Source: Balamuthia mandrillaris (taxonomy: Eukaryota). Taken from it: a DNA stretch of 50,883 nt. Every line of letters begins with the position of its first letter. Positions within the stretch are counted from its first letter, which is position 1. The notes beneath the pieces were generated by a model. The model did not search any database. It was not told the origin of the DNA and worked only from the letters and a program-made list of their open reading frames with translations. Positions 1 through 29,333 of the stretch are shown here, piece by piece. The DNA is taken from positions 124,001 through 174,883 of the forward strand of contig JAVKOQ020000100.1 in the NCBI GenBank assembly GCA_031835245.2, in the 5' to 3' direction. A program made the translations under genes and the position numbers.

Positions 1-32
1 AACGCGTGAACGACGTCGGAAGAGGAACAAGA

Positions 33-1170: not shown

Positions 1171-3107
<1,937 letters not shown>

Positions 3108-6844: not shown

Positions 6845-8155
6845 TCACGCTGAGTCAAAGCACAGCAAGCCTGACCGTACTCGGAAGGAGTTGCTTGAGG
6901 GGGACTGTGAAAACGGAGAAGATGGCGCTGCTTTAGGCAAACTGATCCAAGCTTTAAAACGGCAGTGGTTGCGCTGTTCAACGTCACTGGTGGGTTCATC
7001 CTCCTGGCTTTGCTGAGAAGAGGTAGCAGTCTTTTTGAGTGAAAAGGAATCTTCCTTGCGTAGTGTGACTCTGTACTTGACAAGGTTGGCCCAAGCGTTG
7101 CCCATATACTCTGCATGAAGGGGGATTGGGAGGGAGGAGGAGATTGAGGAGGAGTGATGGCAGAAAGGCCTATGTGTTTGCAGTTGTTGCGGCGAATGTT
7201 GATAAGATTCAGCAGAGTTGTTGGTTGGAGCAGAGCCAAAGCTAGAACGTGTTTTGGAGTAGAGGGCAGCTTTCGTGGCCACCAATATGAGGTTGTAGGT
7301 CAGCACATAATGCCTCAGCAGGTTGACCACTTGTCCGTGTTGTCGTTGCTTTTTATCCGTATATTTGTCCAAGTCGTGGAAGGCCGATATGCTGTCCACT
7401 ACCAACAGCCTTATTCTATTTTGGTCGCTCTTGTTGAGGTCGCCGCTACCACTGCCACCATCAGTCCCAGCAGCAGAGTCAGAGCCACCCATCCTTTCTT
7501 TGTGCTTCTGTCGTTGCGTTTGCTGTTGCTGTTGCTGTTGCAGCGAAGAACGAGTGGGTTGGGAATAGCCTCCAGCCGCAAGTAAGGGCTCCAAGTTTCG
7601 AAGTGTAGCAAAGAAGTGCAGCGTGTTGAAGCAACGAACTATGTGCAGCCGCTGTAGGCTGCTTCCAATGATTTGCTGTAGGTTTGGTTGCTCAAGTAGA
7701 TCAGGCCTATTTTGTTGTTGAAGAATGATGGTGAGACGGCTTTCCAGCATCGTCACCAACTTTAACAGGTTGAACTTATGCCGGTTGTCAAACATGAGCA
7801 CTCCCGCTTCTTCACCAGCCAGCAGCACGCCGTCCCACTCTTTTGGAAGCACTGCGTTGACTATCATCTGTAAGAGGAAGGTCGACTTGCAGGTACCCTC
7901 GCCGCCGTATACCTCCACTACATCGCCCGGTCGCAGCAGTCCTTCTCCGTCTGGTGCTTGTGGCTGACCCGAATTCCCCCTCCAACCCTTGTTGTTGTTG
8001 TCAAAGCCCTGCTGCTGTTGATCTAAGAGGCAGATCCCGGTGGTGAACGGAGGTTGTCTGCCTCGCATGAATAGCTCAGCTGCGTTCTCACTTGATTGCA
8101 GTAGCGAAGAGAAATTGAGGCAAGGCTGCCGCTGCTGCTGCTGCCGCACCTTCAT
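6845..8155 (-). CDS. XRCC2: RAD51 paralog XRCC2, apparently intronless
   Basis: GDVVEVYGGEGTCKST Walker A, AVLPKEWDGVLLAG..VLMFDNRHKF, LLVVDSISAF Walker B and HAEYMGNAW. Start taken at the ATG at 8155. Confidence 0.82.
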   Translation of the reverse strand: MKVRQQQQRQPCLNFSSLLQSSENAAELFMRGRQPPFTTGICLLDQQQQGFDNNNKGWRGNSGQPQAPDGEGLLRPGDVVEVYGGEGTCKSTFLLQMIVNAVLPKEWDGVLLAGEEAGVLMFDNRHKFNLLKLVTMLESRLTIILQQQNRPDLLEQPNLQQIIGSSLQRLHIVRCFNTLHFFATLRNLEPLLAAGGYSQPTRSSLQQQQQQQTQRQKHKERMGGSDSAAGTDGGSGSGDLNKSDQNRIRLLVVDSISAFHDLDKYTDKKQRQHGQVVNLLRHYVLTYNLILVATKAALYSKTRSSFGSAPTNNSAESYQHSPQQLQTHRPFCHHSSSISSSLPIPLHAEYMGNAWANLVKYRVTLRKEDSFSLKKTATSSQQSQEDEPTSDVEQRNHCRFKAWISLPKAAPSSPFSQSPSSNSFRVRSGLLCFDSA

Positions 8156-8160
8156 ACTTG

Positions 8161-8191
<31 letters not shown>

Positions 8192-8441
8192 TCCCACCTT
8201 TTTTGTTTTTTGCTGTTGCCCACCATTTTTTGGTTTTCTTGGAAAAAAATTATCCACCAAAAATAAAAAAAAGAGAACAGCGTGAGGAGCAGGCAAGCTG
8301 CTGTTTACACGACAAATACAAGAGGAGGGGGGGAAGGAGGGAGGGAGGGGTTGGGGTGGGACCAAAGCAGACGATGATTTACTTGATTTTTCTTCTCTGT
8401 AAAAAAAAAAAAAAAGACAAAGCGCCCACAACATGTGGCAT

Positions 8442-9386
8442 TTAAAGACGGGCAGCATGTGCGGGACAGGAACCGGAGGAGGAAGGGCGGGTGATGGTGC
8501 CCTTGATGAGGCCTTGCGGCTCGGAAACGGGGGTCAGGATTTCATTGCTCCACTCGTGCTGCAAGCCAAAGCGGGTGAGGTCCACCGTCCAGTTGTGGAT
8601 GTTGGGCAAGGTGAAGGAAATGGACTGCACGTGCACAAAGTCCTTCAAGACTGCGTCCCCAATGGCGTACACGGTCTCTTGCACGGAGCGGCTGTATCGC
8701 TCGGCAAAGAGACGGCAGGTGTTGCGAACCACTCCATTCCATACGGCAGTAAAGTCTATTTGGTGGGGAGGGGCGTTGTAGGTCCACGTGGCCTCCACCT
8801 GGGTGCGGAGCAGGCGGTCTTTGACCTCAGGCAAGGTGGTGTAGCGGTCCTTGTGGAAGCCAACGAAGCCAGAGCCGCTCGTCTTGAGGAGCTCCAGGTT
8901 CCTGAGGCCAGAGACCACCTGGATGGGGCGAGGGCCAGCGTCGAGGCCAGCAGCGCCCTTGCTGCTGGAGATCAGAGCGGTGCGCACCTCCCTACGAGGG
9001 GCAAAGGAGTGGGAGTGGGGCTGTCCAGCCACCACCAGCCGCTCCCACAGCTGCTCCTCTATGTAGGCCTCTACGGTGTGTATGTGGGAGTACTCCTCCA
9101 AAAAGTGTTGCACCAGGCGCACTCCGAACGTCTCTATGTGGGTGATGGGGTCTTTCTTGGCCAGAACGTAGATGGTGTTCTTGACCGTGTCTGTGGGTAC
9201 CACAGCCGAGTTATCACCGGTGAGGTAAGAGGCGTCCAGACCCTCTCCTTGCAGCAGGACGCGCACGTTGAGGTCCCTGACCTGCTCCTCTCCGCCACCC
9301 TCCTTCCTCGTCACCTTCAACAAGCGCACATGTCGCTTGCCGTACTCGTTACCCGATAAATAAGCTGCGGTACTGCTGCTTGCCAT
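8442..9386 (-). CDS. UOX: Uricase (urate oxidase), peroxisomal (C-terminal ARL)
   Basis: YGK..VR, SYLTGDNSAVVPTDTVKNT, LKTSGSGFVGFHKDRYTTLPE, SRSVQET, LPNIH and PQGLI motifs; ends in -ARL. Confidence 0.95.
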   Translation of the reverse strand: MASSSTAAYLSGNEYGKRHVRLLKVTRKEGGGEEQVRDLNVRVLLQGEGLDASYLTGDNSAVVPTDTVKNTIYVLAKKDPITHIETFGVRLVQHFLEEYSHIHTVEAYIEEQLWERLVVAGQPHSHSFAPRREVRTALISSSKGAAGLDAGPRPIQVVSGLRNLELLKTSGSGFVGFHKDRYTTLPEVKDRLLRTQVEATWTYNAPPHQIDFTAVWNGVVRNTCRLFAERYSRSVQETVYAIGDAVLKDFVHVQSISFTLPNIHNWTVDLTRFGLQHEWSNEILTPVSEPQGLIKGTITRPSSSGSCPAHAARL

Positions 9387-9801
9387 CGTGGTGCTAATAA
9401 CAACAATGTTGTGGTGTTGTGGGAGGAAGAAAAGAAAGAAGAAGAAGAAGAAGAAAGGCTTTCAAAACCCTTTTTTCTCTCTCTCTCTCTCTTTTTTTTT
9501 GATAAAAAGAGGGCGACTTGAAGTCGCTGGGAGGACTCTTAAAAGTCGTTACAAAGATGGCTAAGGGTTAGGGTTCAGGCCACAAGGGGGGTTACTAGGG
9601 CTACATGTGTCCTCTTCCTTCCACCCCGTGTCGACGGAGGTTTTAAGGCGAACCCTCTTTAGGCCCTCCGGCAATTAAAAAATAAGGAGAAAAGAGAGAA
9701 AGGAGGAGGAGGAGCTGCGATACACTAGCTAGCTGCGGGCGACGAGCAGCTTTCCTTCGCCACTCATTTCGTCAGCAGTCAGGATAAGGCCGATCTCTGC
9801 C

Positions 9802-12800
9802 ATGTGGTCTCACAGCATCCGCAACGGGAACTGGCGTTCCTTGCCCAGTTTGTCAAGTCCGCGTTCTTTTTTGGGGAGTTGCACCAGCGGGCTGCTGGGG
9901 CGGAGCTGCGGCCCAAACCTCGGCCCAAGCCTTCCTGCGGAAACTCGCCGACATGCTTCCTCATGCACACCATTTTCCGTCTCGCGGGGTGCACCGCCCT
10001 CCGCAACACCAACAACAAAGCCAGTGGGAGGACTGCCCACACTGGGCCGCAACGGCCGGTTTGATGGTCTCCACGCTCTTCGCACGTTCAGTACTCACTA
10101 CAAAACGTGCGGTAGGCTAGACCCCATGAAGCGGACCGGCTGGCAGACAGGTGGCAACCTTCGCTTTGTTCGTTTTTTCTGCACCAGTGGCACCGGCGGA
10201 ATTAGCCGCCTCCGCAACGTGGCCATCATCGCTCACGTCGATCACGGAAAGGTACGCACTCACGGACAGCACTCCCATCTGTTGCAACACTTGCTCATCA
10301 CCACCCCTCCTACCAAACAACAAACTACCACATAGACAAGCTTGGTTGACACCTTATTGAAACACAGTGGTAGTAACTTTGCTGATGGAGAACGTGTCAT
10401 GGTTAGTTTGCCAACCCCTCCTTATTCGTGAGCGAGGGCGATGCTAAGTTTTGTCTTGGCTGCTCTTGAAATTCTAACAGGATTCCAACGAGCTGGAGAA
10501 AGAGCGAGGAATCACTATCCTATCCAAACAAACTAGCGTTTATTACAAAGACTACAAAATCAACATTGTTGATACCCCCGGTGAGTTCTTGTTCTTTCTG
10601 CTTTCTTTGTTGTTGTCTTATCTTCTTCTTGTTCTTCTTCTTCTTGTTCTTCTTCTTGTTCTTCTTCGTTCTTCTTCGTTCTTCGTTCTTCGTTCTTCGT
10701 TCTTCGTTCTTCGTTCTTCGTTCTTCGTTCTTCGTTCTTCGTTCTTCGTTCTTCGTTCTTGTTCTTGTTCTTGTTCTTGTTCTTGTTCTTGTTCTTGTTC
10801 TTGTTCTTGTTCTTGTTCTTGTTCTTCTTGTCCGTATTTTGTTAAACCATCGTCTCCAGCGGAGTATACTAACCTCTAAGGTGTCACCGCTTTAGGGCAC
10901 GGCGATTTTGGAGGGGAGGTAGAACGGGTGCTCGGAATGGTAGATGGTGTACTTCTGTTGGTAGACGCTTCCGAGGTTTGCATTCACGTCAATGCTCTTC
11001 ATGAAGACTGCGACTAACCAGTATCACAGGGACCCATGACCCAAACTAAATACGTGCTTTCAAAGGCTCTACAAAGGAACCTGCGACCCATTGTGGTTCT
11101 CAACAAAATGGACCGTGAGACTGCTCGACCAGAGGACGTAGAAACAGAAGTACGTTCTTGCCTCTCTCCAGACAGCACTGCATTTTTTTTGATAATCCAC
11201 AACGTTTGAGTGTTGTGATGCTACTCTGACATGTTGCGGTTGCCATTAGATTTTTGATCTTTTTGTGAACTTGAGTGCATCTGATGAACAGTTGAGCTAT
11301 CCTACTTTATATGCCTCGGCCAGAGAGAGTAAGGATACACCTCCTACCAGTCGTCAATCATTATTAACACATTTTCCCCCTCTCCCTTGCCCTCCATCCC
11401 TGAAGGCTGGGCTGTGGCGAACAAGGAAGACGAAAGAGTAGATATGACACCTGTCTTTGAGGCGATCATAAACAACGGTACGTCTGTGAGCTCAATCTTA
11501 ATTTATCATGTCCATCACTGATCGGTTATTGTTTATGATGATTGCAGTCCCGCCGCCAAATGTTGATCCTAGTAAACCGTTTTCAATGCTGATTACCACT
11601 TTGGAGTATGATCCTCACTTAGGCAGACTATTAATTGGTCGCGTGGAAGGCGGGCGAGTTGTGGCTGGCTCACCCTTGCGCTCCCTTTCCTTGGAAGGAA
11701 AGGAGCTGGAATCAGGTATGCCTCTTCTTTTGTTGTTTTCCTCTATGTCTTTTCTAATTTTGCTTGCCAACCCTCACAATCGGAAAACAAACATGAAACA
11801 GGAAAGGCGTTGAAGGTGTTGGGTAGGCAGGGCCTGCAGCGCAAACCACTAGACGTTGGCGAATGCGGAGATATCATTGCTGTCGCAGGTTTTGCAAATA
11901 CTTCGGTGACAGACACTCTTTGTGACCCTTCTGTCACAGAGCCTATCAAAGCAGTTCCGATTGATCCTCCTGTTCTCTCCATGGTATTTGGAGTCAACGA
12001 CTCCCCTATGGCTGGCAAAGATGGAACCAAAGTAACATCGACAGCCCTAAAAGCTCGCATCCTCCGAGAGCTTGAAAGCAATGTGACCATTGAAATGGAG
12101 GAATTGCCAGAGGAAGGCAAGATGGAAATCAAAGGAAGAGGAGAATTGCAGCTTGCGATTCTCATCGAGAACCTTAGGAGAGAAGGCTTTGAGCTCTCAG
12201 TCTCTCCGCCCAAAGTACTTTTCCAGTACGATGAAGATGGCACCAAGCTTGAACCACAGGAAGAACTTACAATTGATGTGGATGGTGAATTCAGTGGACC
12301 AATTATTGAAAAACTTTGTATGTACACCCCCAATTGTAGTTCTCTTGGTGCCTTTTGCTTACCTCTGTTTGTTCCTCTTAGCTAATCGCAAGGCTGAACT
12401 GTTGGAGATGAAAAATGAAGGAAAGAAGGCCCGCATGACATTTTTGTGTCCCTCCAGAGCTCTCATTGGCTTTAGGGTAAGGCATCAACTGCTGGAGTTT
12501 ACTTGTAGCTGAACTCACCACGATGTCCTGGAACTACCAACAGGCAGAGATGACCAGACTATGCAGAGGTTCCCTGGTCTTACACCATACATTTCATTCG
12601 TGGGTTCCTTACAAAGGGCCAATTGATAACATGCGAAAGGGGGCTCTTGTTTCCAATGCGACAGGCGTGGCAACAACCTACGCTCTTAACCTTCTTGAGC
12701 CTCGCGGAACTCTTTTTATCCATCCTCAAACCCAAGTTTATATGGGTGAGTGCTAACAACTTCATCTCAATATCTGTTACTGATGCAGACAAATACCTTC

Positions 12801-13163
12801 TTCCAGGTATGATTGTGGGAGAAAGTGCCAAAAAGGGGGACCTCGATGTAAATCCCGTCAAAGCGAAGCAACTCTCTAACGTGCGATCGGTGCAGAAAGA
12901 GGAGAATGTGCGCCTAACTCCTCCTCGCATTCTCAGCTTAGAGGAAGCCATAACCTATGTGCAAGGTACTTGCCCAGTGACATCGGCATGCCGTTTTTTT
13001 ATTTTGCCAAAATGGTCTATTTTTCCCTCCCTAACCACTTCAATCCACATTTCCAGAGGACGAACTTGTGGAAATAACGCCAAAGCACGTAAGAATGAGG
13101 AAAGAAGTCTTGGATACTTCTCTCAGAGAACAGGCTGCCCGAAGGAAGAAAAAAGCGAACTGA
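9802..13163 (+). CDS. typA: TypA/BipA translational GTPase with a probable mitochondrial presequence, many introns
   Basis: [98 protein letters not shown] and [11 protein letters not shown]-terminal extension is Arg/Ser/Leu-rich. Stop at 13161-13163. Confidence 0.93.
10620..10830. repeat. Compound microsatellite (TTCTTCG)n/(TTCTTG)n inside TypA intron 10581-10895
   Basis: Tandem repeats seen directly. Confidence 0.9.
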
Positions 13164-13402
13164 AGAGGGTGCATCCAAGACCTCCACGCTTTGCCTACCC
13201 GAATAAACCACTGCCACAAAACAAGAATTACATCACTTTGCCCAGCCATCTCTCTGCAGGGGTGATAGATTAGGGGCTGTTGATCGTTTGCTTGTTGTTG
13301 TTTCGCTTTGTTGTAGTTCGGGAGTTTTTGGACTCGAATTGCAAATAACCAAAAAATCCGGTTGGTGGGCTGGTTGACCCGCAAGCCGAACACAAAATCT
13401 TT

Positions 13403-16400
13403 ATGAACTTACCCAAATTGAGGTGTGCTCTATATAACCCAGAAGAAGAAGAAGAAGAACAAAGCTCCAAAGCAGTGAAGCAGGAAGGAATGAGCGGTCG
13501 CTCGGTGCGAAATGGTAGTGGTGGTAGCTGCTGCGGGGAGAGCTTCTGCGCCAAAACTACGGCTACCACCGTAAACCAACTACTATGGCAGGCGGTGAGG
13601 CGGTTCGGCGAACGCCCGGCGTTGGCTTGGGAACAACAAGGCAAGTCCTGCAGAATGACCTATTCGGAGTTAGGGGAGGAGGTGCTGCGACTAGCCAAAC
13701 AGCTACAGAGACAGGGCGTTACAAGGAACAGTCGGGTGGCCATCCTAGCAGAACGGCGCGCCGAACTTATTTTGGCAGAAGCTGCTGTTATATGCGCAGG
13801 AGGAGCCTTTTGTTGTTTAGACCCGGAAGCTCCTCCCCAACGCAACCAATTGATTCTTGCAGACCTTCAACCCTCCGTCTTCCTCTGTCAGCAGCATCTG
13901 CTGAACAAACTTAGTCCTGGTGCAGCCCAATGGAAGACCGTGGTCCTTCCCTTGGAGACCTTCTGTTGCAAACAAACGAGCAGCCAAAGAACCGAGGTAA
14001 CCATTCACAACAACAACAACAACGTAGATAAGGAGCTACTAGAAGAAGAGAAAGAAGAAGACATTCAAGTAAACAACCGGCCGGAGGACTTGGCTTATCT
14101 GGTGTATACCTCCGGGACGACCGGCAAACCGAAAGGAGTTATGGTAACGCACCAGAATCTGGTCAACTTTGTGGAGAGCAGCATGAGAAGGACGTGCCAC
14201 CACCGGAAGCAACTCCATCGGACTACCAGTATCGCTAGGCGAACGGAGGAAGAGGCAGATAAGCATGAAGGAGAGCAGGAGGAGCACCATTGGTACTATG
14301 AAGAGGGGGATCGTACGCTGCCCACTGCAGCAGTGCAATTTGATATTCATGTGATGGAGGTGTGGTGTGCGCTTTCGGCTGGCGCTTCCTTATTTCTTAT
14401 AGCCAAGTGGGAGGTGCTGGACAGCAGCTTTCTTGCGCAATATCTCGGCAAGCACAACGTCAACAAGATGTTTATGGCAACGGGCTTGTTTCATCGGTAC
14501 GCCAACACGAGGCCAGATATTCTCGGTCAACTGGAGGCATTGTGTGTAGGAGGGGACTCCCTTTCGGCCTCCTTGGCTATGGCTGTAGCCAACAGCTATC
14601 CCGGATTGCGGCTGCTAAATGCCTACGGCCCTTCGGAGACCACGCTTTGGGCGTCCTACTTCCGCGTGCGCCCTGGACGTCACTATGAGAGGATTCCTAT
14701 TGGCTTCCCTTTGCACAACTACGTGATCTACGTCCTCGACGAAGAGATGCGGCCCCTCTCCTCGCACCACCAATACCGGGAGAAGGAGAAAGAAGAGAGA
14801 CAAACGCAGCGGCAGCAGGTTGGCGAGATTGTGATAGGCGGGCTTGGAGTGGCGACCGGCTATTTCAACCTTCCAGAGCTGACTGCCACCAAGTTCCTTC
14901 CGGATCCGTTTGCGGCAACAGCAGGCCGTGAACCACAACGTATGTATCGCACCGGTGACCTTGGCTACTGGTTGCCAGATGGATGTCTAGCCTTCGCAGG
15001 AAGGGCCGATGATCAGTTAAAAATCCGGGGCAACCGTATCGAGCTCGGCGAGATCGAAACTCAACTCAATCAGCATGCCGGTGTGGCGGCAGCCTGCGTC
15101 TGCGTACAGCAGACGATAACACTTGCGGCTACAGCAACCGGTACAACCCACGGCAACGAAGGTGAAGAGAAACGCTTGATAGCCTGTGTGGTGCCACAGA
15201 AGAGCAACCATGCACGGGAAGAGCAGGTTTCGAAGGAGGAGCTGTTGCGCCACATGAAAGAAAGACTTCCAGAGTATATGCTGCCGAAGCACATCTTTTT
15301 TGCAGAGCATTTGCCTACTAATTTAAACGGTAAAGTGGACAGAAACCAGGTCCTCAGCATGTGGGAGGAAAACCAGGAAGAGGAGGATCTCCGAACGAGC
15401 TGCACACCGTTGCAGCTGGATGATGGCGTAGAGGCAAGACGTGACCAGTCATCTGTGGGGTGCATGTTGCGAGACTTGTGGCAAAGCTGCCTCCATGATA
15501 CAGCTGGTACGATCGGCATGGATGCTAACTTCTTCCAAATGGGCGGAGACTCGTTTGCATGCATGGCACTTGCCGCCAAAGCCAACGAAAAGGGGCTTCC
15601 CCTTACCCCACTCCTCATCAATGAGCATCCAACACTAAGAGCTCAGCTGCAGTACTTGCTTTCCTTGCCTGCTCAAGTATCAACGACTGGTACAACGCGC
15701 GAAGACTACTTGCTGAAAGTTCGACTCACGCCTGCACAACAACGACTGGCAGACATAGTGTTGAAATCTCACGATAGTGTGGAATACCTTGTACCGGCAG
15801 CTCCTTCCCAACGAGCTCTACTTATGATGTCACTACGGCAGCCAAGCAGCGGCCTCATGCAGCTTGTTGCCTCCACTGTTTCTTCTTCTTCTTCTTCTTC
15901 TTCTTCTTCTTCTTCGTCTGGAGTGGTATTCGATATTCATGCCTTCCACAGGGCCTGGGAGATAACCTGCGCGACCCATCCTGCCCTCCGTGCAAGCTTT
16001 CACTGGACTGGCGACATGGCAACTGTTCTCCAAGCCGTTCATAACAAAGTGAAACTTCCAAGTTTTCCTGTGTTTGAGGTTGGCTCTGAAGAGAAACTCG
16101 AAGAGCGGGTGCAACGCTATATCGCTGTGGATAGGAAACGAGGAATGGACTTCAAGGTAGCTCCATTGCTCCGCATGGCTATATTCAAGAGAGGCCCTCG
16201 TTGCACATTCGTTTGGACCTACCACCACGTTTCACTTGATGGCACATCAACTTCCATCGTCTTCCAAGACTTTGTTTCGTTGTACACCACCTTGGTCAGA
16301 TCATCACCACCATCAACATCACCTTCAAATGACCCGAAACGACTGGAAACGCAAACCTCCCTCATCGAAGAGACAGCCCTCATTTCCCCCAGCAACTTAC

Positions 16401-19400
16401 AAGGCCAACAATTCAGCGCGGAACAGGAAACAAGAGCAGAGCAGTTTTGGAAGGAGAGAATGGCTGGTGCCCCGACTGAACCATTGATACCGCTAGACTG
16501 CACCAGCAGCACCCCTCCAATAGCGGAGCAGCTGGTCGTCCATCACCCACTCCGACCAGAACTGGTGATACGATTGAAGCAGTGGTGCAACAGGAATGCA
16601 ATGACTCTTGCTACCGTAACCTTTGGTGCTTGGCTGTTGCTTGGCTTCGTAGAAGATTGCCTTAGTGGAAAGAGGCGCAAGGCTCTGGGATCTCTCATCA
16701 ACTTTGCAGGACGGCCTTCAGAAAGTCTGTCGGCCGCCGCACCCAAAGCTGTGAGCATGCTAGTTAATCCTCTCCCTGTTCATTTGTCGGTGGACGAGGA
16801 GGATCGCCTTCTTCGTTGGCTGAGGCAGCTCCGCACCGCGGTGGTGCAGGCCCAGGAGTATGAGTTGTTTTCTCTCGCTAAGGCACTCTCCTTCGCCAAC
16901 AAGCAAACCTTAGGTCTCGTGCGACATTGCTTCAATTGGGACGGCTCACCATTAGAGTACCGAACGGTGGAGTGCTTTTCTACTCCTTCTTCTTCTACTG
17001 CTGCCTCTTGCGCTTTCCGAGTCGAACGTATAGAAGAGCGTACAGGATTCGGGCTGGCCATGAATGTAGCGGACCATGGAGGCTCCACCCTCACTGTCAC
17101 AGTGGAGTGGAATAACGGAATGTACCATCAGCAGACCATTCATAAACAGCTAGTACGGTTTGAATGGTTGTTGGAAGGTGTTGTTGCTGTAGACAAAGAT
17201 GATGATCCTTCATTGAGACGTCTCATCGATAACATAAGTGCTGCATCTGCACATTTACCCATTCGGCTTCCGCTTGGACTCACTCCTTCTGAGCTAGCTG
17301 TACTTCGTTACCGGCGAGGGCCAAAGAGGGCGAGGGTTGCTTCATATTTAGAAGAGAGTATGTGGAAGCTTCAAGTTGCCAAAGTCAAGGGTACTTTGAA
17401 GCCTTCTGCTCTGCATCGGTGTCTACACGAGCTGGCTCGTCGCCATCCAATACTTCGCACTGTCTTCTACCATTGCGAAGACAACGAGGAAGAGCTGTTG
17501 CGTCGCACCATTCCTCAGGAAGACGTCGACGTATCATTTCAAGCGCAAGATCTTTCCTATCTGAGCAAGGGACAACAAGCAGCTAAATTTGAAGAGGCGC
17601 GGGCCTCGGCCAAACAGCTCCTTCAGCTTGGGCAAGGCGACAACCATAACATGTTCGGCATCATTGCTTTGCGTCTTGGCAAGTTACGGCATTGCTTGCT
17701 TCTATGTTATCACGAGCTTCTCCTCGACCAAAAATCTACAGTGCTCTTCTGGCAACAGCTTTCTTTGTTGCTGAACGGCAAAGATGGCAACCTCCAAGGC
17801 GAACCTAAAAAAGATGCCTCTTCTTCTTTTTTCTCCATTCATCAAGAGAGAGGGATATCAGCCGTTTTACTGTTGCCATTATTCAACAGAACACGTTTAA
17901 GAGGAAATTATGAGAAGATATGCAATCCGCAAACGAGTTTGAGGAAGCCTCCACTCCCTGCGCAACTACCTTATAGTGTACCACCTTCTTCATTATCAGA
18001 GAGTGAAGCAGTGACGAGACGGCCTACTGCTACTGTTGTGCGCACTCTTCTTGTCCCCAATATAAATGCTGAAGAGGGAGCACAACAGCTGTTAGCGGCT
18101 CTGCTCATACTCCTCCATAGATACAACACAGAAACCGATTGTGTGGCAGCCACGCTTGTTCCTTCCGGGCTCGTGCCTCGTGGGACCGATAGCCATACTG
18201 CAGCTGTTTTGGGATGCTTTGCTGCTCCTCGTATCCTAGCAGCAAATATCCCATCAGCCAACTGCCGTGCGGAGGACGTTATACGACAGGTGCAGAGGGC
18301 TCTTTTGAATTCCGGTGCTGAAGATGACGAATACGATGACCAATTGCAGCAGCACTCATGCGACTATTCATCCGGGATTCAACATTGCCGTGGCAATAAC
18401 GTGGAGTTGCTATTCCACCCATACGTTGAGATCCCGAGGGAGGAATGCGCCCCTCTACGCCTTTCACTCCTGCCTTCCCGTTCCATGACGCTTCTCTCTG
18501 GATCCACTGAGGTTGCCTTCCATATCTCAGAAGAAAGACGCGGCGGCTCTCCTGTGGGAACGCTGGAGCTTGCTCTACACTACGATACGCGTCTGTTTTC
18601 CAGCAGAGCGGCTGCATTCATGACCGACCACTACGCCAATGTTCTGAGCAGCATTTTGGCTGACCCAGCAGTACTGCTGGGCGACATACCGCTGCTCTCC
18701 GCTGAGGAAAACCAACTCTTGGATAGCTTTAGTACCTGCAATGAGGACCACAAGATGCAAAACGCTGCAGCTGCCGTGCTGGTGCAGCACCTCTTTGAAA
18801 AAAACGTTGCTTCTCTACCCGACAGAACCGCAGCATACGTTGCAGAAGGAGATATCTCAGTCTCATACGACCAACTCAACTACAAAGCAGAAGCGATCAA
18901 GGAGATGCTATGGGATGTGTGCGGAAGACAGAAGCGAGTGGTTGCACTTTTTTTCAGGCGGTCTGTTGGTTTGTTGGCCTCACAGCTGGCTGTACTCAAG
19001 GCTGGCTTTGTGGTTCTTACTCTGGACCCCGAAGCACCGCTGCAACGCAATGCTGGCATCCTAGAAGACGCCAACTGCCAAGTAATCCTCCACATGGATG
19101 GACTGAAGAACAGTTTGCCATCGCCTACTGTCAACGGTAGCGATGATCCTCCTCTTGTGCAGCTGTGCATTGATTGCCTGGGGGAACCTGTTGTAGCCGA
19201 GTCTTCTGGCAAAGGGCGGCATCTCTGTAAGCCTACTGCTGCTGCCGCTCTTCATCATGAAGTCGCCATGCTGGTATTCACCTCTGGAACCACGGGGCGA
19301 CCAAAAGGCATTCAGGTCACTCATCAAAACATGGTGAGCATGTTTAGCAACAAGTTTCAATTCCATGTGGAGGAAGGGGATAGAGTGCTGGCCACCACTG

Positions 19401-22400
19401 CTGTGCAGTTTGACATGAGCGTGCTGGAGGGGCTGGGCACTCTATGCGGAGGAGGCAGCGTAGTTTTGGTGGACAAAGAGTCTATTCTGGATTCTCGCTC
19501 TATGGCGAAGGTTATCAAGCAGCACAAGATAACCAAGATGGTTTTTGTCAGTGCACTGTTCAACCACCATGCACGAGAGAGACCCGAAATGTTTGCAGGA
19601 CTGAAGCAAATCATACTTGGCGGAGACGAGGTGCTGCCCAAGCCTGTACTGCGGGTGCTGGAGACCAACCCAAGCCTGGTCATCACTCCTGGTTATGGAC
19701 CCACCGAGTGCACAATGGTCTCTACCTATTACTCGATGGACCCTGCCTTGTTGAGCAGCATGCAGACTTCAGTGCCTATCGGCAGACCCATTGACAACGC
19801 AGTGGCCTACGTAGTGGACAGCTATTTCAACCGCGTGCCCGTTGGTGTTTGCGGGGAATTGCTCATAGGCGGCAGAGGTGTTACCAGAGGCTACCTTGGC
19901 AATGAGGAGCTGACTGTCCGCAAGTTCGTTCCCAACCCATTTGCCTCCTCGGCTGTTGGAGGAGCAACGGGAGGGAGTGCCATGGCTCCGGTGTTGTACC
20001 GCACTGGGGACAAGGTGAAATGGCTGTCTGATGGCAATATCCTCTTTGTTGGCAGAAATGATGGGCAACTCAAGATAAGAGGAAACCGTGTGGAATTGGG
20101 AGAGATCGTCCGCGCTCTGCAAGACCACCCACTTGTTGGGGACGTTGCTGTGGTAGCCTGCGACGGGGAAGGTCCTGCACCTACAGCAGAAAAGCATTTG
20201 GTAGCCTTTGTAGTCAGGAAAGGAAAGATTGCCACGGGCAGCGGTATCACTGCTCCGCTAGAAGCTGCCATGCAAGAAGACTTCAGGACGTTTTTAAGAG
20301 GACGCCTTCCCAGCTACATGACGCCACGCAATTTCTTCTCTATCGACCGTATCCCAATGACCCTTAACCAGAAGGTGGATGCTGCCAAGCTGAGAGATAT
20401 TGCTCACATCAAGCTGCGTGAAGAGATGGAGGAAAACGATATCGGGTCGCTTCATCCGCACGGATTAGAGAATGGTGGTGAAGCCTGCAAGAATCCCTGC
20501 GTGAATGGAGCCCCAAAAGATTGGATCACCTCTATCTCGGGAGGTCGTCCGGAGCGCCACATCGCGGTGCGAAAGAAGCTGCACTCACTGTGGAAAGGGG
20601 TCATTGGCCATCCAGTGGGTCCGGAGGACAAATTTTTTGAGGTTGGTGGTGAGTCCCTCATGGTATCAAGGCTCTGCCAACAGATCGCCAACGCTTTCGG
20701 GCTTGATGAAGACGAGGACCTCATGGGTGTTTTCTTTGAGCGGCCGACTATTGCCGGCATGGAGAAGCACGTATTACAACGTTTTGAAGCTAAAACAGCA
20801 ACAGGAGAAACGCATCAGCTATTGCAACCATCCAACGCTGGTAGTATGACACAAACAATCAGCAAAATGCAACCTGAGTCGACGCCTACAGCCAGCTTTC
20901 CACCAGCGACTCACTCTGTTGATAACAAGGAAGGAAAGGAGAAAAAAGAAAAGAAGCAAGCAATGGGCAATGTAGAATCCACACACATAGCAATAGTGGG
21001 TATGGGATTTAGAGGTCCCAAGGCTAGCAATTACCAAGAGTTGTGGGAGAACCTCAAGAATGGGCAGGATTGCATTACTAGGTTTACCACAGCTGAACTG
21101 AAGGGGCATGTCTCAGATGAGGCCCTCTCTCATCCCTCCTATGTAAAGGCAAGGGGGTGGGTCGAGGATGCTCTTCAGTTTGACCCACAGTTCTTCAACA
21201 TTCCGGAGGAGGAAGCTTGCGCCATGAGTCCCCAACACTGGATGTTTTTGGAAATGGCTGCGACTGCCCTGAACGACGCTGGCCACCCCAATCCATCCCT
21301 TCTCAGGACGGAGAAGAAGCTTACTGGAGTATTTGTTGGAGCTGCGGACAGCCACAGTGATGACAGTGGGTATAGCAACGGTGAGGACGAAAAAGAGGAG
21401 GAAGAGGAGGGAACTGGTACCTGCCGGAAGAACGAGACGAAGAGGAGGACTCCAGCAGAGGAAACCAAGCAAAGCATGCTACGCTCTAACCACTTTATAG
21501 CCTCCCGTGTGGCATACCACCTGGACTTGGATGGACCAGCAGTAAGCGTGCAGGCGGCCTGTGCCTCAGCTTTGGTGGCTGTGCATCAGGCTTGTTCCGC
21601 TCTGAACAACGGTGAATGTGACATAGCAGTAGCTGGCGGAGTGGAAGCTGCCCACAAGGAAAAGGAGGGCTACTTTGTGGCAACTACGAGCCTTTCCAAG
21701 GATGGGGTGTGCCGGCCCTTTGACACCCAGGCAGGCGGCTGTGTGCCTGGTAATGGCTGCGGTGCTGTGGTACTTCGACGACTGCAGGACGCTCTTGCTG
21801 ATGAGAATCACATCTATGCTGTGATAAGGGGCTCTGCCACCAAGAATGATGGGGCAGCAGGAAAGATGGGCTATTATTGTCCTGGCGTGCAGGGCATCGC
21901 CTCCACTATTGAACACGCCATTCGTGTTGCTGGCCTGCGCCCTCAAGACATTTCTTTTGTGGAGACAAATGGTACAGCTGTACCTTTAAGTGATTCCATT
22001 GAGATTCAAGCCCTTCGCAAAGTATTTGTTGAGGGCACTGCCACCAAGGACGGACAGACTAAATACCAGATGGAGCCCCTTCATCAGCACCGTTCTCAAT
22101 ATTGTGGTAGAGAAGACAGCAGGCAGCATCCTCATGGCCATATCGCCTTGGGAGCTATCAAATCCAACATTGGTCATCTTGGAGCAGCTTCAGGTATTGC
22201 TGCCCTCATCAAAACTGTTTTATGCCTCTACCATGATACAATTGTCCCAACGGTAAACCATTCTTCTTCTCATGCCAATCTCCGCTTGGAGAGCTCTCCA
22301 TTCTTTGTGCCTACAAAATGCGAGGCCTGGCCTCTTCCTACTGTTCATTCTCACTTGGGTAAGGCAGCTGGAGACGAAACAAGAACACTTTTTGCAGGAG

Positions 22401-22651
22401 TAACTGCAATTGGTAGTGGAGGCACTAATGTCCATGTTGTACTGCAAAATACCCCTTTTCTACCAAGAAGAGGAGTTTCTCTGAGTGCTGACTCCTCCTT
22501 ACAAGAAAGGAGACCCAACATCCCTCCCCTTTGCTTCAACAGGGTATCAATGTCCTCTTTATTGTGTAAACATCAGATTGCTATTAAGGCATCAGACATA
22601 TTTGGTATATCACAAAAGGAGGAAATTGCAGCCTTTGAACTTTATGAGTAA
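13403..22651 (+). CDS. Intronless NRPS-PKS hybrid, 3082 aa: A1-T1-C1-C2(degenerate)-A2-T2-KS; no AT/ACP/TE. Start may be 13403 or 13490.
   Basis: A1: YTSGTTGKPKG (14105), NAYGPSE, YRTGDL, QLKIRGNRIELGEIE, NGKVD. T1: GGDS (Ser 15551). C1: HHVSLDG (16223). C2: HELLLDQ (17711). A2: FTSGTTGRPKG (19277), GYGPTE, YRTGD. T2: GGES (Ser 20654). KS: IAIVGMG, QAACASALVAVH (Cys 21560), ETNGT (21968), KSNIGHL (22175), GGTNVHVVL. Confidence 0.93.
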   Translation: MNLPKLRCALYNPEEEEEEQSSKAVKQEGMSGRSVRNGSGGSCCGESFCAKTTATTVNQLLWQAVRRFGERPALAWEQQGKSCRMTYSELGEEVLRLAKQLQRQGVTRNSRVAILAERRAELILAEAAVICAGGAFCCLDPEAPPQRNQLILADLQPSVFLCQQHLLNKLSPGAAQWKTVVLPLETFCCKQTSSQRTEVTIHNNNNNVDKELLEEEKEEDIQVNNRPEDLAYLVYTSGTTGKPKGVMVTHQNLVNFVESSMRRTCHHRKQLHRTTSIARRTEEEADKHEGEQEEHHWYYEEGDRTLPTAAVQFDIHVMEVWCALSAGASLFLIAKWEVLDSSFLAQYLGKHNVNKMFMATGLFHRYANTRPDILGQLEALCVGGDSLSASLAMAVANSYPGLRLLNAYGPSETTLWASYFRVRPGRHYERIPIGFPLHNYVIYVLDEEMRPLSSHHQYREKEKEERQTQRQQVGEIVIGGLGVATGYFNLPELTATKFLPDPFAATAGREPQRMYRTGDLGYWLPDGCLAFAGRADDQLKIRGNRIELGEIETQLNQHAGVAAACVCVQQTITLAATATGTTHGNEGEEKRLIACVVPQKSNHAREEQVSKEELLRHMKERLPEYMLPKHIFFAEHLPTNLNGKVDRNQVLSMWEENQEEEDLRTSCTPLQLDDGVEARRDQSSVGCMLRDLWQSCLHDTAGTIGMDANFFQMGGDSFACMALAAKANEKGLPLTPLLINEHPTLRAQLQYLLSLPAQVSTTGTTREDYLLKVRLTPAQQRLADIVLKSHDSVEYLVPAAPSQRALLMMSLRQPSSGLMQLVASTVSSSSSSSSSSSSSGVVFDIHAFHRAWEITCATHPALRASFHWTGDMATVLQAVHNKVKLPSFPVFEVGSEEKLEERVQRYIAVDRKRGMDFKVAPLLRMAIFKRGPRCTFVWTYHHVSLDGTSTSIVFQDFVSLYTTLVRSSPPSTSPSNDPKRLETQTSLIEETALISPSNLQGQQFSAEQETRAEQFWKERMAGAPTEPLIPLDCTSSTPPIAEQLVVHHPLRPELVIRLKQWCNRNAMTLATVTFGAWLLLGFVEDCLSGKRRKALGSLINFAGRPSESLSAAAPKAVSMLVNPLPVHLSVDEEDRLLRWLRQLRTAVVQAQEYELFSLAKALSFANKQTLGLVRHCFNWDGSPLEYRTVECFSTPSSSTAASCAFRVERIEERTGFGLAMNVADHGGSTLTVTVEWNNGMYHQQTIHKQLVRFEWLLEGVVAVDKDDDPSLRRLIDNISAASAHLPIRLPLGLTPSELAVLRYRRGPKRARVASYLEESMWKLQVAKVKGTLKPSALHRCLHELARRHPILRTVFYHCEDNEEELLRRTIPQEDVDVSFQAQDLSYLSKGQQAAKFEEARASAKQLLQLGQGDNHNMFGIIALRLGKLRHCLLLCYHELLLDQKSTVLFWQQLSLLLNGKDGNLQGEPKKDASSSFFSIHQERGISAVLLLPLFNRTRLRGNYEKICNPQTSLRKPPLPAQLPYSVPPSSLSESEAVTRRPTATVVRTLLVPNINAEEGAQQLLAALLILLHRYNTETDCVAATLVPSGLVPRGTDSHTAAVLGCFAAPRILAANIPSANCRAEDVIRQVQRALLNSGAEDDEYDDQLQQHSCDYSSGIQHCRGNNVELLFHPYVEIPREECAPLRLSLLPSRSMTLLSGSTEVAFHISEERRGGSPVGTLELALHYDTRLFSSRAAAFMTDHYANVLSSILADPAVLLGDIPLLSAEENQLLDSFSTCNEDHKMQNAAAAVLVQHLFEKNVASLPDRTAAYVAEGDISVSYDQLNYKAEAIKEMLWDVCGRQKRVVALFFRRSVGLLASQLAVLKAGFVVLTLDPEAPLQRNAGILEDANCQVILHMDGLKNSLPSPTVNGSDDPPLVQLCIDCLGEPVVAESSGKGRHLCKPTAAAALHHEVAMLVFTSGTTGRPKGIQVTHQNMVSMFSNKFQFHVEEGDRVLATTAVQFDMSVLEGLGTLCGGGSVVLVDKESILDSRSMAKVIKQHKITKMVFVSALFNHHARERPEMFAGLKQIILGGDEVLPKPVLRVLETNPSLVITPGYGPTECTMVSTYYSMDPALLSSMQTSVPIGRPIDNAVAYVVDSYFNRVPVGVCGELLIGGRGVTRGYLGNEELTVRKFVPNPFASSAVGGATGGSAMAPVLYRTGDKVKWLSDGNILFVGRNDGQLKIRGNRVELGEIVRALQDHPLVGDVAVVACDGEGPAPTAEKHLVAFVVRKGKIATGSGITAPLEAAMQEDFRTFLRGRLPSYMTPRNFFSIDRIPMTLNQKVDAAKLRDIAHIKLREEMEENDIGSLHPHGLENGGEACKNPCVNGAPKDWITSISGGRPERHIAVRKKLHSLWKGVIGHPVGPEDKFFEVGGESLMVSRLCQQIANAFGLDEDEDLMGVFFERPTIAGMEKHVLQRFEAKTATGETHQLLQPSNAGSMTQTISKMQPESTPTASFPPATHSVDNKEGKEKKEKKQAMGNVESTHIAIVGMGFRGPKASNYQELWENLKNGQDCITRFTTAELKGHVSDEALSHPSYVKARGWVEDALQFDPQFFNIPEEEACAMSPQHWMFLEMAATALNDAGHPNPSLLRTEKKLTGVFVGAADSHSDDSGYSNGEDEKEEEEEGTGTCRKNETKRRTPAEETKQSMLRSNHFIASRVAYHLDLDGPAVSVQAACASALVAVHQACSALNNGECDIAVAGGVEAAHKEKEGYFVATTSLSKDGVCRPFDTQAGGCVPGNGCGAVVLRRLQDALADENHIYAVIRGSATKNDGAAGKMGYYCPGVQGIASTIEHAIRVAGLRPQDISFVETNGTAVPLSDSIEIQALRKVFVEGTATKDGQTKYQMEPLHQHRSQYCGREDSRQHPHGHIALGAIKSNIGHLGAASGIAALIKTVLCLYHDTIVPTVNHSSSHANLRLESSPFFVPTKCEAWPLPTVHSHLGKAAGDETRTLFAGVTAIGSGGTNVHVVLQNTPFLPRRGVSLSADSSLQERRPNIPPLCFNRVSMSSLLCKHQIAIKASDIFGISQKEEIAAFELYE

Positions 22652-23818
22652 AGACATAAAAAACCTTATACCTTGTTGTAAACATTTATTTCTCTTTTTT
22701 TGCATTGTTAAGAGATGATTATTGAGAATAAGAATAGAGTTGAGGAAATAAAAAAAATTAAGGTTAATTAGGGATATTATTTTTTAAGGGGAAAAACAAA
22801 TATGTTGCAAAAAAAAAAGACAATAAGAAGAAACAAGTCAAATATTTTAGCCAAATTTGCCCTAATAATTGCCCAAACCCAACATCGAAAAGTATTTAGT
22901 GTACATTTACAAAAGGAACATATAACTTCTTCAATAGAATAAACCTTTATAAAATAAAAGGTCCAAAGTTGTTGAAAAAGGCGAAAAACATGAACAGATG
23001 AGGCCAAAACGTATTATTCAAACGGAACAAGGGAACAAAGAATGTTAAGAGGGAAAGGTGTGATGTGAATGAAAACAAAATTAACTAACTAAAAGAAAGA
23101 GAGAAGGAAGCAATGGAATAAAAGGAAGAAGCCTAGTAACGACAGGAAGAAAGGGAAGGAAAAGGGGCAATGGAGCTAGTATGTTGAGAGTATTTCTCAA
23201 CAAAGTTAATACTTTACTTGCAATGGTCTTTTAAAGGTATGTATTATCAACTACGTCCATGATAAAAGAGGAGTTTCCAAGGACACACCAAAGTAGGCAC
23301 ACCAACTATGAGCTGTAACAATAAATAAGTGTCTCAGCATGTTGGACTTCCTGTCAACACTTTCCTTGGATACCCCAAGTTTTCTTGCTTTTTTTTATTT
23401 TTCCTTTTTCCTTACAACATATTCAAAGCACACTTTCGTCCAACAGAAACACTAGACCAAAGTGTGTTAGACATGCAAGATGAATATAACACAGAATAGA
23501 GGAAATAAGAAAAAAAATATGAAGGAAAGAAAGATATAGAAAATAATACAAAGCTGGAGCCAATAAACTCTCCATTTTGCTCAGCCCATCTGTGTAAGCA
23601 ATGTCTTCTAGTGTATTAGTATATTTAATAGCTATGTTGTCACTGATGAATACAATGCATTAATGGAGTTGCCTTTTTCAGCATTTGCTTTTTGTAGATA
23701 AAATGACAAGGTCTTATGGATCACTGTTTATAAGCTACTATGTGTAAGTTTTCTAACATTTTTAAGGCATAGCCATTGCCAGGCAGCCAAAATAATTAAC
23801 AAACATATATATATTCTT

Positions 23819-25783: not shown

Positions 25784-26027
25784 TATTGCAGGTAGTAGTA
25801 GTAGTAGTAATAAGAAGTTTATTTGCTCTGAGAGCAACACCAATCTATATATAAAAAGTAAGCATTGTACATAGTGTACTCTTACTTCTCTTACTCCCTC
25901 ATCCTCCAATGCCTTCCCAATTGTTACTCAATTCACAAGTGAAAGGTGTTGAATGAGATTTCAGACCAACTTTGTATCATCTAGCTATCCTTTTCTTTCC
26001 CTTTCCTTTCTTCTCTTTTCCTTGCTA

Positions 26028-29000
26028 TTACATTACTTCCAAAGATTGATAAAGTGCAGAAGAACTTCCATGCTTCCAACTTGCTCTTGCTGCCCATAAT
26101 CTCCAGACTCGTTTACAACTTTGCTTACATTGTTCCATCTCTTGAGCTCTGTTACATTTCTTTCCACTTGACAGGAGGTTTGTTGTACAGTCTTCAATAA
26201 TCAGCTTTCTGACTTGTTCTTCATTTCCATTGTCCACACTCCAGATTCTAAAGCGATCTTCCCAAAGGTTAGGACACCTTAACAGGAAGTGTTCCGCTGT
26301 TTCTTCCTCAGCATCACATGCAGGGCACTTGCTATCCTCCTCAGACTGCTGAATGGCTCCCCACTTTTTTCCAATGGGCAGTCCACCACAACAAATAGCA
26401 TTCATCAAACATTCTTTCCTTGGGTTGGTAATCACTAAGCTCCGTTGTTGTCCAACCAAACATCTTCCATTTGTCAAGAAGTTATGCCATAGCCATGCTC
26501 TTGTTCCTCTTTCTCCTTCAGCTGCATACTCCACCTTGGCTACTCGAGTTAAGGTCCTCATCCTCTTGGCTTTCTTTTCAACAACAGTCGTCCTGTCACC
26601 TCCCTCACCTTCATTCTTCTCCCCTTCCTCTTCACTTGCTTGGCTTACCTCTTCAAGTAGCTCAAAGTGGCCATCTTGTCTCTCAGCATGATGAATTACT
26701 GCTTGTCTTTCCAACTCACAGTAGGCCTTGATGGTCAACCAGCCCAATTCTGCTCTACAAACCCCTGCCACAGTCCTTCAATGAACTTGCAATACGCTTC
26801 TTGCTGTCTCATTCCACACAGCTTCGATCTTCTTCCACCATGATTTGGAAAGCTCTGTCATACATAGTCCATATGACAAGGTAGACTTGACAATAGCCTC
26901 TGCAGCAATCTGGGCAGTGCGTGTACCAAGGCCTTGGGCAATGGCTCCCCGCTGCCTAAGGCTGTAGAGGGCTTGCTTGGCCTTGGTGATCCTCTCCTTG
27001 GCATGAGTTGTCCATTCCCCACTTTCTTCAAACCACAGTCCCAGGTACTTGGCCTCCTTCACACGTTTCACAGCCTCCCCCTTCAGTCTCTACTCTTGAA
27101 AATGAGCCTTCTTTCCTTGTACTAGCACTACTGATTTCTTTGCATTGAACTGAAGTCCCAGAGCATTCACTGCCTCCACTGCTACATTCAATCTTCTCTG
27201 AAGCTCAAATGGATCGCTGGCCACCACTGCCAAGTCATCAGCAAACAGCAAGCAAACATTCCTTGCTTTATCTCCTCTTTCTTTCTCCTCTGCTGCTTGT
27301 AGCTTTCTTGCCACCACATCAATGTATACATTGAACAAGAATGGAGACAAAACTCCTCCTTGCTTAACTCCTCTTTCCACCAGAAATTCCTCCGAGAGCT
27401 GCCCATTCATGCGAATAACACTCGTCATACCACGGTACCACTCTGTAATGATACCCACTGCTGCCTCTTCAGCTCCTCTTTTGCGTAAGGTCCTTGCCAG
27501 TATGTCATGGTCGAGCATGTCATATGCCTTGCTGATATCCAACAGAGCAATATAGGTGCGTTCTTTGCTTCTCTTCATCAGGCATTTCTTCAACCGCCAC
27601 ACCTGATCCATGACCCCCCTTCCTTTTCTAAATCCACCCTGGCAATTACTTATCCACCCTTGCTCTCTTGCTTGTATGTTCAATTGTACCAAGATAGCTC
27701 CTTCAAACACCTTGGCTGCATTGCATAGGAGAGTAATACCTCTATAGTTTGCTGGATTCTGGGAATCTCCTGCCTTATGCAAGGGAATAACCACCCCCTG
27801 TTTCCACTCCTTGGGGAATATGCCTTGGTTCTCAATGGCCTTGATCAGCGTCCAAGTTGCATCTTGCACATGTTTACCTCCATACTTCATCATTTCCCCA
27901 TCAATATTGTCCACCCCAGCTGCTTTGCCCACCCTCAATCTTTTCCTCCATGCAAGATTAAAACTCTCCTTCTTAAGCCAGTTACTACCAGACCAAGGTA
28001 GTCCTTCTGGACCTGCTTCCTCTCGATGCAAGCTCCTAATGGAAGAATCCTTCCTTCCCAGCTTTGCCCAATGTTCCTTGAAGGCTGCCGTGCTACCATG
28101 GTGCTCCCTAACTGCTTTGGGCTCTGCTCTACGCTTTGCCACTATCCTCCACATGTTGCCGATCCATTTCTGCATTTCCTTGATGTTCTCTTGTCTTTTC
28201 CACTTCATCCAGTCCCATTTGTTGGCTCTCCACAGCTTCACAAACCTTTTCCTGAGTTCCACAAATTCCTCTCTGGCCTTTCCATCATTCTTTCCTTCTC
28301 TTAGCCACTGAGCATGGGCTGTCGCTACCTGCTTGTTCAAGGATGTTAACTCTGCTGTCCACCATGGCTTCCTTGCCCTGCTCGTTGTTGCTCCTATCAG
28401 TCTCCTTTCTCTACCAAACCATCTCATTGCACAATCCCACAATCCTTTTTTCCACTTGCTCCAAAGATCTTCAACAGTAGCTGCTCCCTCCCGTGTTTTC
28501 TTGACCATGGCCTTCCATTCCTCTCCTTTGAAGAAACGCTTGCACCCGCGTTTGTACTCCCTCCACCTCCTCTTGCGATCTTCCTCTGAGTAGGACTTCC
28601 ACTTCCATCGTTCCATCCAAACCCCGCCGCAATTATCTGCTGAGTCCTTCAACTCGACTACCAGTGGTCGATGATCAGTCCAAGCTTGCCATCTGTCACC
28701 AACTACCTTGCCCGTCCATCCCCATGCTACCACATAGTCCACAATGCTCTTTCGTTTTCCAGCTCTCCATGTAAATACTGGCGCTTCCTCTTCGAGCTGA
28801 GGCAACGAGAGGGCCAGCCTTTTGAAAGCCTCCACCAACACCTTTCCTCTCGCGTTGTAAGTAGATTCACCTCTACCATTCCATCCCTTTCCAACCCTGG
28901 CGTTCCAATCACCTCCAATAATCAGGGGTCTTCCTTCCTTGACCACGTCCAGGATTCTTTTCTCAATCGCAGCCAAGGTGACCTTAAAGTTGTCCACGGT

Positions 29001-29333
29001 ACCTCCTGGGGGGAGATACACTATACCGATTATAAAGATGCAACTCTGTCCCGCCAGTTCCACCCAAGTGGAGTTGGGTGTTCGCCACTCTTTCCTTTCT
29101 CTGATGTTCCCCTTGAAGCCCTCTCGAACAAAGAAACCTGCGCCACCCCTTCCATAGCCACTCCTCCCTGGAGCAGCCCCTCCACCCATCCACCGATACC
29201 CCTCCAATCGAGGAGCAACCATCCTCCTATGTTCGCACACTCCAATAATGTCAAATTGCTTACTGTCAGCCCAGCAGCTGACCAATTCCTCTTGTCCCCA
29301 GCCCCTAGTGTTGACAAACGCTACTGAAGTCAT
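26028..29333 (-). pseudogene. LINE ORF2: apurinic endonuclease, reverse transcriptase and C-terminal CCHC; two premature stops (27090, 26778)
   Basis: EN: VAFVNTRG, DIIGVCE, GGDWNA, SIVDY, TDHRP. RT: NYRGITL, QGGFRKG, LDISKAYD, GVKQGGVLSPFLFN, LFADD, KYLG. C-terminal CPAC..ETAEHFLLRC. Copy 2 has TGG where this copy has TAG at 27090. Confidence 0.92.

Follow-up and report, generated by a model that had tools for sequence, protein, structure and literature searches.

The window analysed here, a 50,883-nt stretch of the Balamuthia mandrillaris contig JAVKOQ020000100.1, contains an intronless open reading frame (ORF) for a nonribosomal peptide synthetase (NRPS) ending in a lone ketosynthase (KS) (Table 1). 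Its stop-free frame spans 13349–22651, and an ATG at 13403 yields 3082 amino acids. A Pfam search of the ORF returned two AMP-binding, two AMP-binding_C, two PP-binding and two Condensation domains together with the N- and C-terminal parts of a KS; AT, KR, TE and reductase domains were absent among the nine Pfam families listed at E ≤ 0.1. With its adenylation core motifs, carrier serines and at least one condensation domain bearing HHxxxD, the ORF belongs among the NRPSs. A preliminary description, made from the letters alone, had predicted the uninterrupted frame, the lack of AT, TE and reductase, and two each of adenylation (A), carrier (T) and condensation (C) domains, with core motifs in both A domains, an intact Ser in both carriers and one of the two C domains degenerate; the search and motif readings bear this out. 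It had also placed the start about 240 bp after an intron-rich host gene, and the stop codon of that gene, TypA/BipA with its 12 introns, indeed lies at 13161–13163, 239 nt before the ATG.

Table 1. Features of the window, with positions counted from its first letter.
Feature	Position	Strand	Description and basis
Fatty-acid hydroxylase/sterol desaturase family gene	3–962	+	
Thiolase fragment	1171–1686	-	
RecA-like ATPase	6845–8533	-	XRCC2-like by our reading; single long frame
Uricase	8442–9461	-	single long frame
TypA/BipA, upstream host gene	9802–13163	+	12 spliced GT..AG introns; open 737-aa frame after splicing
NRPS ORF, intronless, 3082 aa	13403–22651	+	A1-T1-C1-C2-A2-T2-KS-66-aa tail, C2 degenerate, KS putatively non-elongating; ORF calling, Pfam, motifs, RNA runs
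Adenylation domain A1 (aa 55–655)	13565–15367	+	Pfam, motifs, pocket code DIMFCGALW(K)
Carrier domain T1	15455–15673	+	Ser717 intact; Pfam, motifs
Condensation domain C1	15770–17212	+	DCL-type, HHxxxDG intact; motifs, tree, profiles
Degenerate condensation domain C2	17270–18727	+	LCL-leaning, catalytic His to Glu; motifs, profiles, fold
Adenylation domain A2 (aa 1792–2335)	18776–20407	+	Pfam, motifs, pocket code DMLVIGGMV(K)
Carrier domain T2	20564–20788	+	Ser2418 intact; Pfam, motifs
Ketosynthase (KS)	20981–22450	+	post-NRPS (hybrid) type, Cys2720/Asn2856/His2925; motifs, trees, model
C-terminal tail, 66 aa, and stop	22451–22651	+	low-confidence helices; no KS-AT linker match
133-nt high-copy repeat	23817; about 25800–25931 (inverted); 32487		
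LINE-type retroelement, first copy	26028–30691	-	endonuclease and reverse transcriptase
LINE-type retroelement, second copy	35169–37457	+	endonuclease and reverse transcriptase; opposite orientation to first copy

The neighbours of the ORF are housekeeping genes and LINE elements, and no tailoring, AT, ACP or TE gene was present among the 23 window ORFs scanned. Hidden downstream exons, or a split gene carrying AT, ACP and TE, were considered and rejected: no GT..AG joint leaves the ORF, and the downstream ORFs are LINE elements.

The ORF is a genuine Balamuthia mandrillaris gene. Its best protein match, KAL6062732.1 (P0002), comes from an independent NCBI assembly of the same species, where it lies on a 164-kb contig; it is 94% identical, has the same KS triad and the same last residue, and was automatically named ‘Non-ribosomal peptide synthetase MassC’. 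This protein starts at residue 449 of our ORF and therefore lacks most of A1. Among 18 listed sequencing runs, 13 (five studies, one organism) contained 0.37–0.80 of the sampled ORF words. By contig depth, a rough measure, two runs put the ORF level with TypA (30.4 vs 30.2; 17.1 vs 16.9), and in a third TypA was deeper (140 vs about 80 for the ORF); none of the contigs listed bridges TypA and the ORF. Codon use in the ORF correlated with that of the pooled neighbour genes (r = 0.70; 0.13 for a LINE control), and the protein carries host-like homopolymer runs. If a piece of DNA from a contaminating bacterium or an endosymbiont had been wrongly joined to the amoeba contig, this would explain the lack of introns and the fact that nearly all named matches in the protein searches are bacterial. 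The lack of introns is a weak sign of foreign origin, however, as a number of neighbouring host genes likewise consist of one long frame, and the independent contig, the 13 runs, the matching depth in two of them, the host-like composition and the distance of the closest domains outside Balamuthia (26–39% identical) leave this explanation with a negligible probability. The location in an amoebozoan genome, as first described, therefore holds.

The same 26–39% identity indicates that a bacterial origin of the gene is likely but old. The domains are bacterial in type, as the preliminary description had it, and parts of the protein likely came long ago from a bacterial NRPS-PKS whose AT-ACP end was lost. 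A search for the same architecture in other protists, which had been suggested as a check, gave no recognisable orthologue among the best 120 matches of three protein searches (word-limited candidates, many of them unnamed). A HMMER search of 50% representatives returned nothing informative beyond KAL6062732.1, its best 150 matches being filled by multi-KS giants, and two metagenome scans, whose reach is close relatives only, gave 0 of 590 and 0 of 108 pattern hits. A giant-virus source was also considered: six viral contigs (L001–L006), five of them giant-virus bins, carry a type I KS 24–31% identical to the Balamuthia KS, and this source was rejected because these values fall below those of the bacterial hybrids. 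NRPSs in protists are rare but known, with 7 of 32 algae reported in the available part of one survey (PMC4661987), and hybrid assembly lines in eukaryotes are known from nematodes, according to the portion of PMC10394414 at hand. The accessible text of the dictyostelid genome paper treats PKSs and contains no NRPS term (PMC3188802). A literature search found no paper on this gene, although annotation tables may list it; term searches gave no mention of the gene in PMC8569187 and PMC10471605 (for each, the main text with one supplement) or in the main text of bioRxiv 10.1101/2025.02.25.640156.

Three raw RNA runs, sampled to 3–5% of each run, gave the ORF a low depth comparable in order to that of TypA; it is covered as well by an RNA-like contig run in which TypA is fully spliced. 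No GT..AG joint was seen inside the ORF in the RNA runs examined; an apparent joint at 13462–14041 was rejected as an intron, being a trinucleotide-repeat artefact with AG..CT ends. Coverage fell to about zero just beyond the 3′ end of the ORF, a weak control given the apparently unstranded libraries and a 3′ flank that is not the same in all strains. All of the indels listed within the ORF (10 of 10) were multiples of three, and all 11 listed for the flanks, with 69 more left out, were 1–2 nt. The 62 best-supported ORF SNPs, a selection that leaves out 188 and 543 further rows, comprised 29 silent and 33 residue-changing changes and no stop; with an expected silent share of 24–29%, this corresponds to an omega of about 0.35–0.46 (p = 0.002). 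The ORF is under purifying selection. A silent gene with a neutral dN/dS, which the preliminary description had named as the outcome that would count against it, is thus not what we found.

Between the two strains, residue differences amounted to 1.4–5.3% in the domains other than C2 and 6.4% in C2; the corresponding values are 6–16% for the linkers and 13.6% for the tail. Among the large domains A2 is conserved best (1.8%), and the KS differs at 11 of 490 residues (2.2%). Past the stop codon (22651–22660) the strains no longer resemble each other: contigs of runs X1 and X2 leave the window there, and runs X7 and X12 have other 3′ flanks. One contig of run X12 (contig 10, 8996 nt) aligns to 18086–22656 with 128 differences. 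Its remaining 4143 nt have no window match at ≥88%, and X12 gives nearly no cover of 14020–18085. The length of this remainder fits a collinear diverged allele of the A1 core, T1, C1 and half of C2; the other reading considered for it is an unrelated insertion.

By motif reading, the A3, A4 (Asp), A5, A7, A8 and A10 cores are intact in A1 and A2 alike (A10 Lys644 and Lys2324). Their pocket codes, extracted by comparison with PA1221 and an A domain of teicoplanin type, retain the Asp that binds the alpha-amino group, and they agree at only 4–6 of nine positions with reference codes. From these codes A1 is weakly predicted to prefer a small, Gly/Ala-like alpha-amino acid, and A2, as weakly, a hydrophobic one. 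A1 and A2 were sisters in the A-domain tree (support 99), which suggests an old duplication, with the caveat that both branches are long; the A domains of modules 1 and 2 may thus have arisen from one another by duplication.

C1 carries HHxxxDG at aa 941–947 and, with profiles built from fetched proteins, scored 176 bits as DCL, 73 as LCL and 38 as epimerase (E); the C-domain tree agrees with the DCL assignment, placing C1 outside the 100-support E clade. C1 as an epimerase, with the ORF containing an E-DCL junction, was rejected on both counts, and no epimerase precedes this DCL-type domain in the ORF. C2 carries HExxxDQ at aa 1437–1443, is weakly LCL-type (LCL 68, DCL 58 and E 30 bits), and by fold matches retains the C-domain fold within a C-A-T module. 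In other scanned proteins, tandem C-family pairs were E-like then C in 31 of 31 cases, so the set offers no counterpart for an active C that precedes a dead one, nor for a T2 that must reach C1 with the dead C2 lying between C1 and A2-T2.

This order, unprecedented in the set, raises an alternative in which the halves act separately or only in part: A1-T1-C1 would acylate a free amine or other soluble acceptor, and C2-A2-T2-KS would load and transfer a single amino acid or be a slowly decaying remnant. A dead C2 that is also the fastest-changing domain fits this view, as does the X12 contig, which matches 18086–22656 but fails to match the preceding 4 kb, as would be expected if module 1 varied by itself. 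The conservation of all domains, with A2 foremost, the in-frame indels and the RNA across the whole ORF argue against it, and we consider it improbable.

The terminal KS that had been described is present but departs from the canonical form: in both strains its triad, Cys2720/Asn2856/His2925, has Asn where the His of HGTGT is expected, a change that had been missed. Loss of this His is a mark of non-elongating KSs, as stated in the available part of PMC4661987. With Asn at this position and no AT or ACP, polyketide extension by the ORF protein is unlikely and the initial ‘NRPS-PKS’ label does not fit; judged from its residues, the KS likely cannot extend a chain. We surveyed 1015 full KS domains from 507 fetched proteins. 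An A-T unit precedes 54 of them, of which 36 are Cys/His/His, 16 are Cys/His/Asn (TAS1-like) and two, the two Balamuthia copies, are Cys/Asn/His. In all four KS trees, which are quick trees, a branch with support of 99 sets the KS on the side of the hybrid and TAS1 KSs, relatives that take aminoacyl or peptidyl chains. It was never nested in the TAS1 clade; as sister to that clade it received support of 87–91 under single-matrix models and 0 under a mixture model, and an AU test rejected neither a placement with TAS1 (p = 0.71) nor one with bacterial hybrids (p = 0.75). The predicted KS model (pLDDT 81) best matched ClbC and oxazolomycin KSs; SalC also ranked near the top by fold, and TAS1 was a further match. 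P0055 and P0056, hybrid NRPS-PKS proteins of other origin, stop 4 aa past a post-NRPS KS with Cys/His/His intact, and these ends may be a bacterial counterpart of the terminal KS.

Our leading reading, which we hold tentatively and at slightly less than even odds, is by analogy with TAS1: a dimodular NRPS joins two residues, predicted to be one small and one hydrophobic, into a dipeptide that the terminal KS then unloads. A host phosphopantetheinyl transferase would prime Ser717 and Ser2418. A1 would activate the small and A2 the hydrophobic alpha-amino acid, and C1, with its intact motif, would join the two on T2, C2 presumably having a structural role, both as a spacer and as the partner of A2. 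The dipeptidyl group would then move to Cys2720 of the KS, from which it may leave either as a diketopiperazine, by cyclisation, or as the free acid, by hydrolysis. A dipeptide-derived product, proposed at the outset, thus stands as the best guess. For release speak the conservation of the KS, which exceeds that of the linkers and tail despite the lost first His, the shared last residue of the two strains and the want of AT, ACP and TE in the window ORFs. TAS1 offers a precedent as an NRPS ending in a lone KS that releases the product, on the available portion of PMC4640141. In the part of PMC10006239 at hand, the terminal KS of CalA3 likewise releases its product, needs its first His for C–N bond formation, and as a first-His mutant lost amidation and hydrolysed about 3.4-fold more. 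Because TAS1 has the opposite triad and CalA3 needs its first His, neither is an exact precedent for the Balamuthia KS.

In the main alternative, the KS would be a relay that passes the dipeptide to a separate, unlinked partner (a carrier-bearing PKS, a fatty-acid synthase or another protein). The 66-aa tail would then serve for docking, and the end product would be a larger peptide-polyketide or a lipopeptide. A KS at the C-terminus of a multimodular PKS subunit is usually read as a hand-off to the next protein, and 8 of 15 other Cys/Asn/His KSs in the set sit at just such ends, 45–84 aa from the C-terminus; the structure model, at low confidence, predicts helices in the Balamuthia tail, and the ORF has no release domain. 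The KS nonetheless lies outside the terminal-KS0 clade (a 100-support clade across the 99 branch), being 27–30% identical to that clade and 36–39% to hybrid KSs. The tail had no significant match to KS0 tails (E = 0.012, 2.3 bits) and was rejected both as a KS0 docking tail and as a KS-AT linker remnant; it is also among the most variable parts of the protein. No related Balamuthia PKS or NRPS appeared among the best 120 matches of the three word-limited protein searches. We regard a relay as less likely than release. A further proposal, in which malonate from an AT and a carrier acting in trans lets the KS lengthen the dipeptide to a CorA-like pyrazinone, draws on the order A-T-C-(C)-A-T-KS, which resembles CorA in the accessible portion of PMC13691573, and on the retained Cys and second His. 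CorA itself, in that same portion, is Cys/His/His with its own AT-ACP; the Cys/His/His majority of the 54 post-NRPS KSs, among which only the Balamuthia copies are Cys/Asn/His, makes this proposal very improbable.

If release by the KS is correct, this would be a second, apparently independent case of a KS turned NRPS release domain, a Cys/Asn/His triad would be new in that role, and a nonribosomal product would be made by a free-living amoeba that is also an opportunistic human pathogen. A bolder version, which we consider doubtful, is that an amoebozoan evolved the KS release enzyme of a stand-alone NRPS independently of TAS1 and with a mirror-image triad, so that its product would be the first nonribosomal peptide from any free-living amoeba and, with module 1 varying by strain, would differ between strains. 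As a single intronless gene, the ORF is directly expressible and assayable. An enzyme of such a class would be a possible marker or drug target, should its product matter to the amoeba; a role in disease has no support in the present sequence analysis. The system had been put forward as undescribed. This stands insofar as no paper on the gene was found and neither the active-then-degenerate C tandem nor a Cys/Asn/His KS after an A-T unit had a parallel in the set outside Balamuthia, but not for the lone-KS end, known from TAS1 (PMC4640141, as far as available), nor for the gene itself, which has an automatic NCBI annotation.

Among known systems, the NRPSs of the AusA, FtmA and GliP types, which form diketopiperazines and pyrazinones, share the A-T start, two modules and absence of a TE; AusA is A-T-C-A-T-R. 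Unlike the Balamuthia protein, they end in a reductase or C domain and lack the tandem of active and dead C domains. AusA was the third-best NCBIfam match to the ORF (633 bits against a cut-off of 2500). The trans-AT non-elongating KS0 domains and the terminal KSs of SalC and CalA3 share the His-to-Asn change in HGTGT and, in 8 of 15, a C-terminal position with a short tail. The Balamuthia KS differs from them in its post-NRPS lineage, its place after an NRPS carrier and its position outside the trans-AT KS0 clade. CorA, the Corallococcus dimodular NRPS-PKS for alkyl-pyrazinones, also performs two adenylation steps and delivers a dipeptide to a KS, as given in the available text of PMC13691573. 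It goes on to extend the chain with a Cys/His/His KS-AT-ACP, and of these marks of an elongating module the Balamuthia protein has the post-NRPS KS lineage and neither the Cys/His/His triad nor the AT and ACP.

TAS1, the Pyricularia oryzae tenuazonic acid synthetase (C-A-T-KS; PDB 6KOG), is likewise a eukaryotic NRPS with a lone terminal KS and no AT, ACP or TE, on the accessible part of PMC4640141, and its KS, to which that of Balamuthia is 32% identical, lies on the hybrid side of the tree. It differs in having one module with an active starter C, where Balamuthia has two A-T units and a dead C before A2, and in its triad, Cys/His/Asn in all 16 TAS1-like KSs of the set, as against Cys/Asn/His followed by a 66-aa tail. 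The Balamuthia A domains do not group with that of TAS1, and its KS stays outside the TAS1 clade, with a sisterhood that depends on the model. Given the opposite triad and different architecture, the Balamuthia protein is not a member of the TAS1 family; by analogy, it may work like TAS1 in logic.
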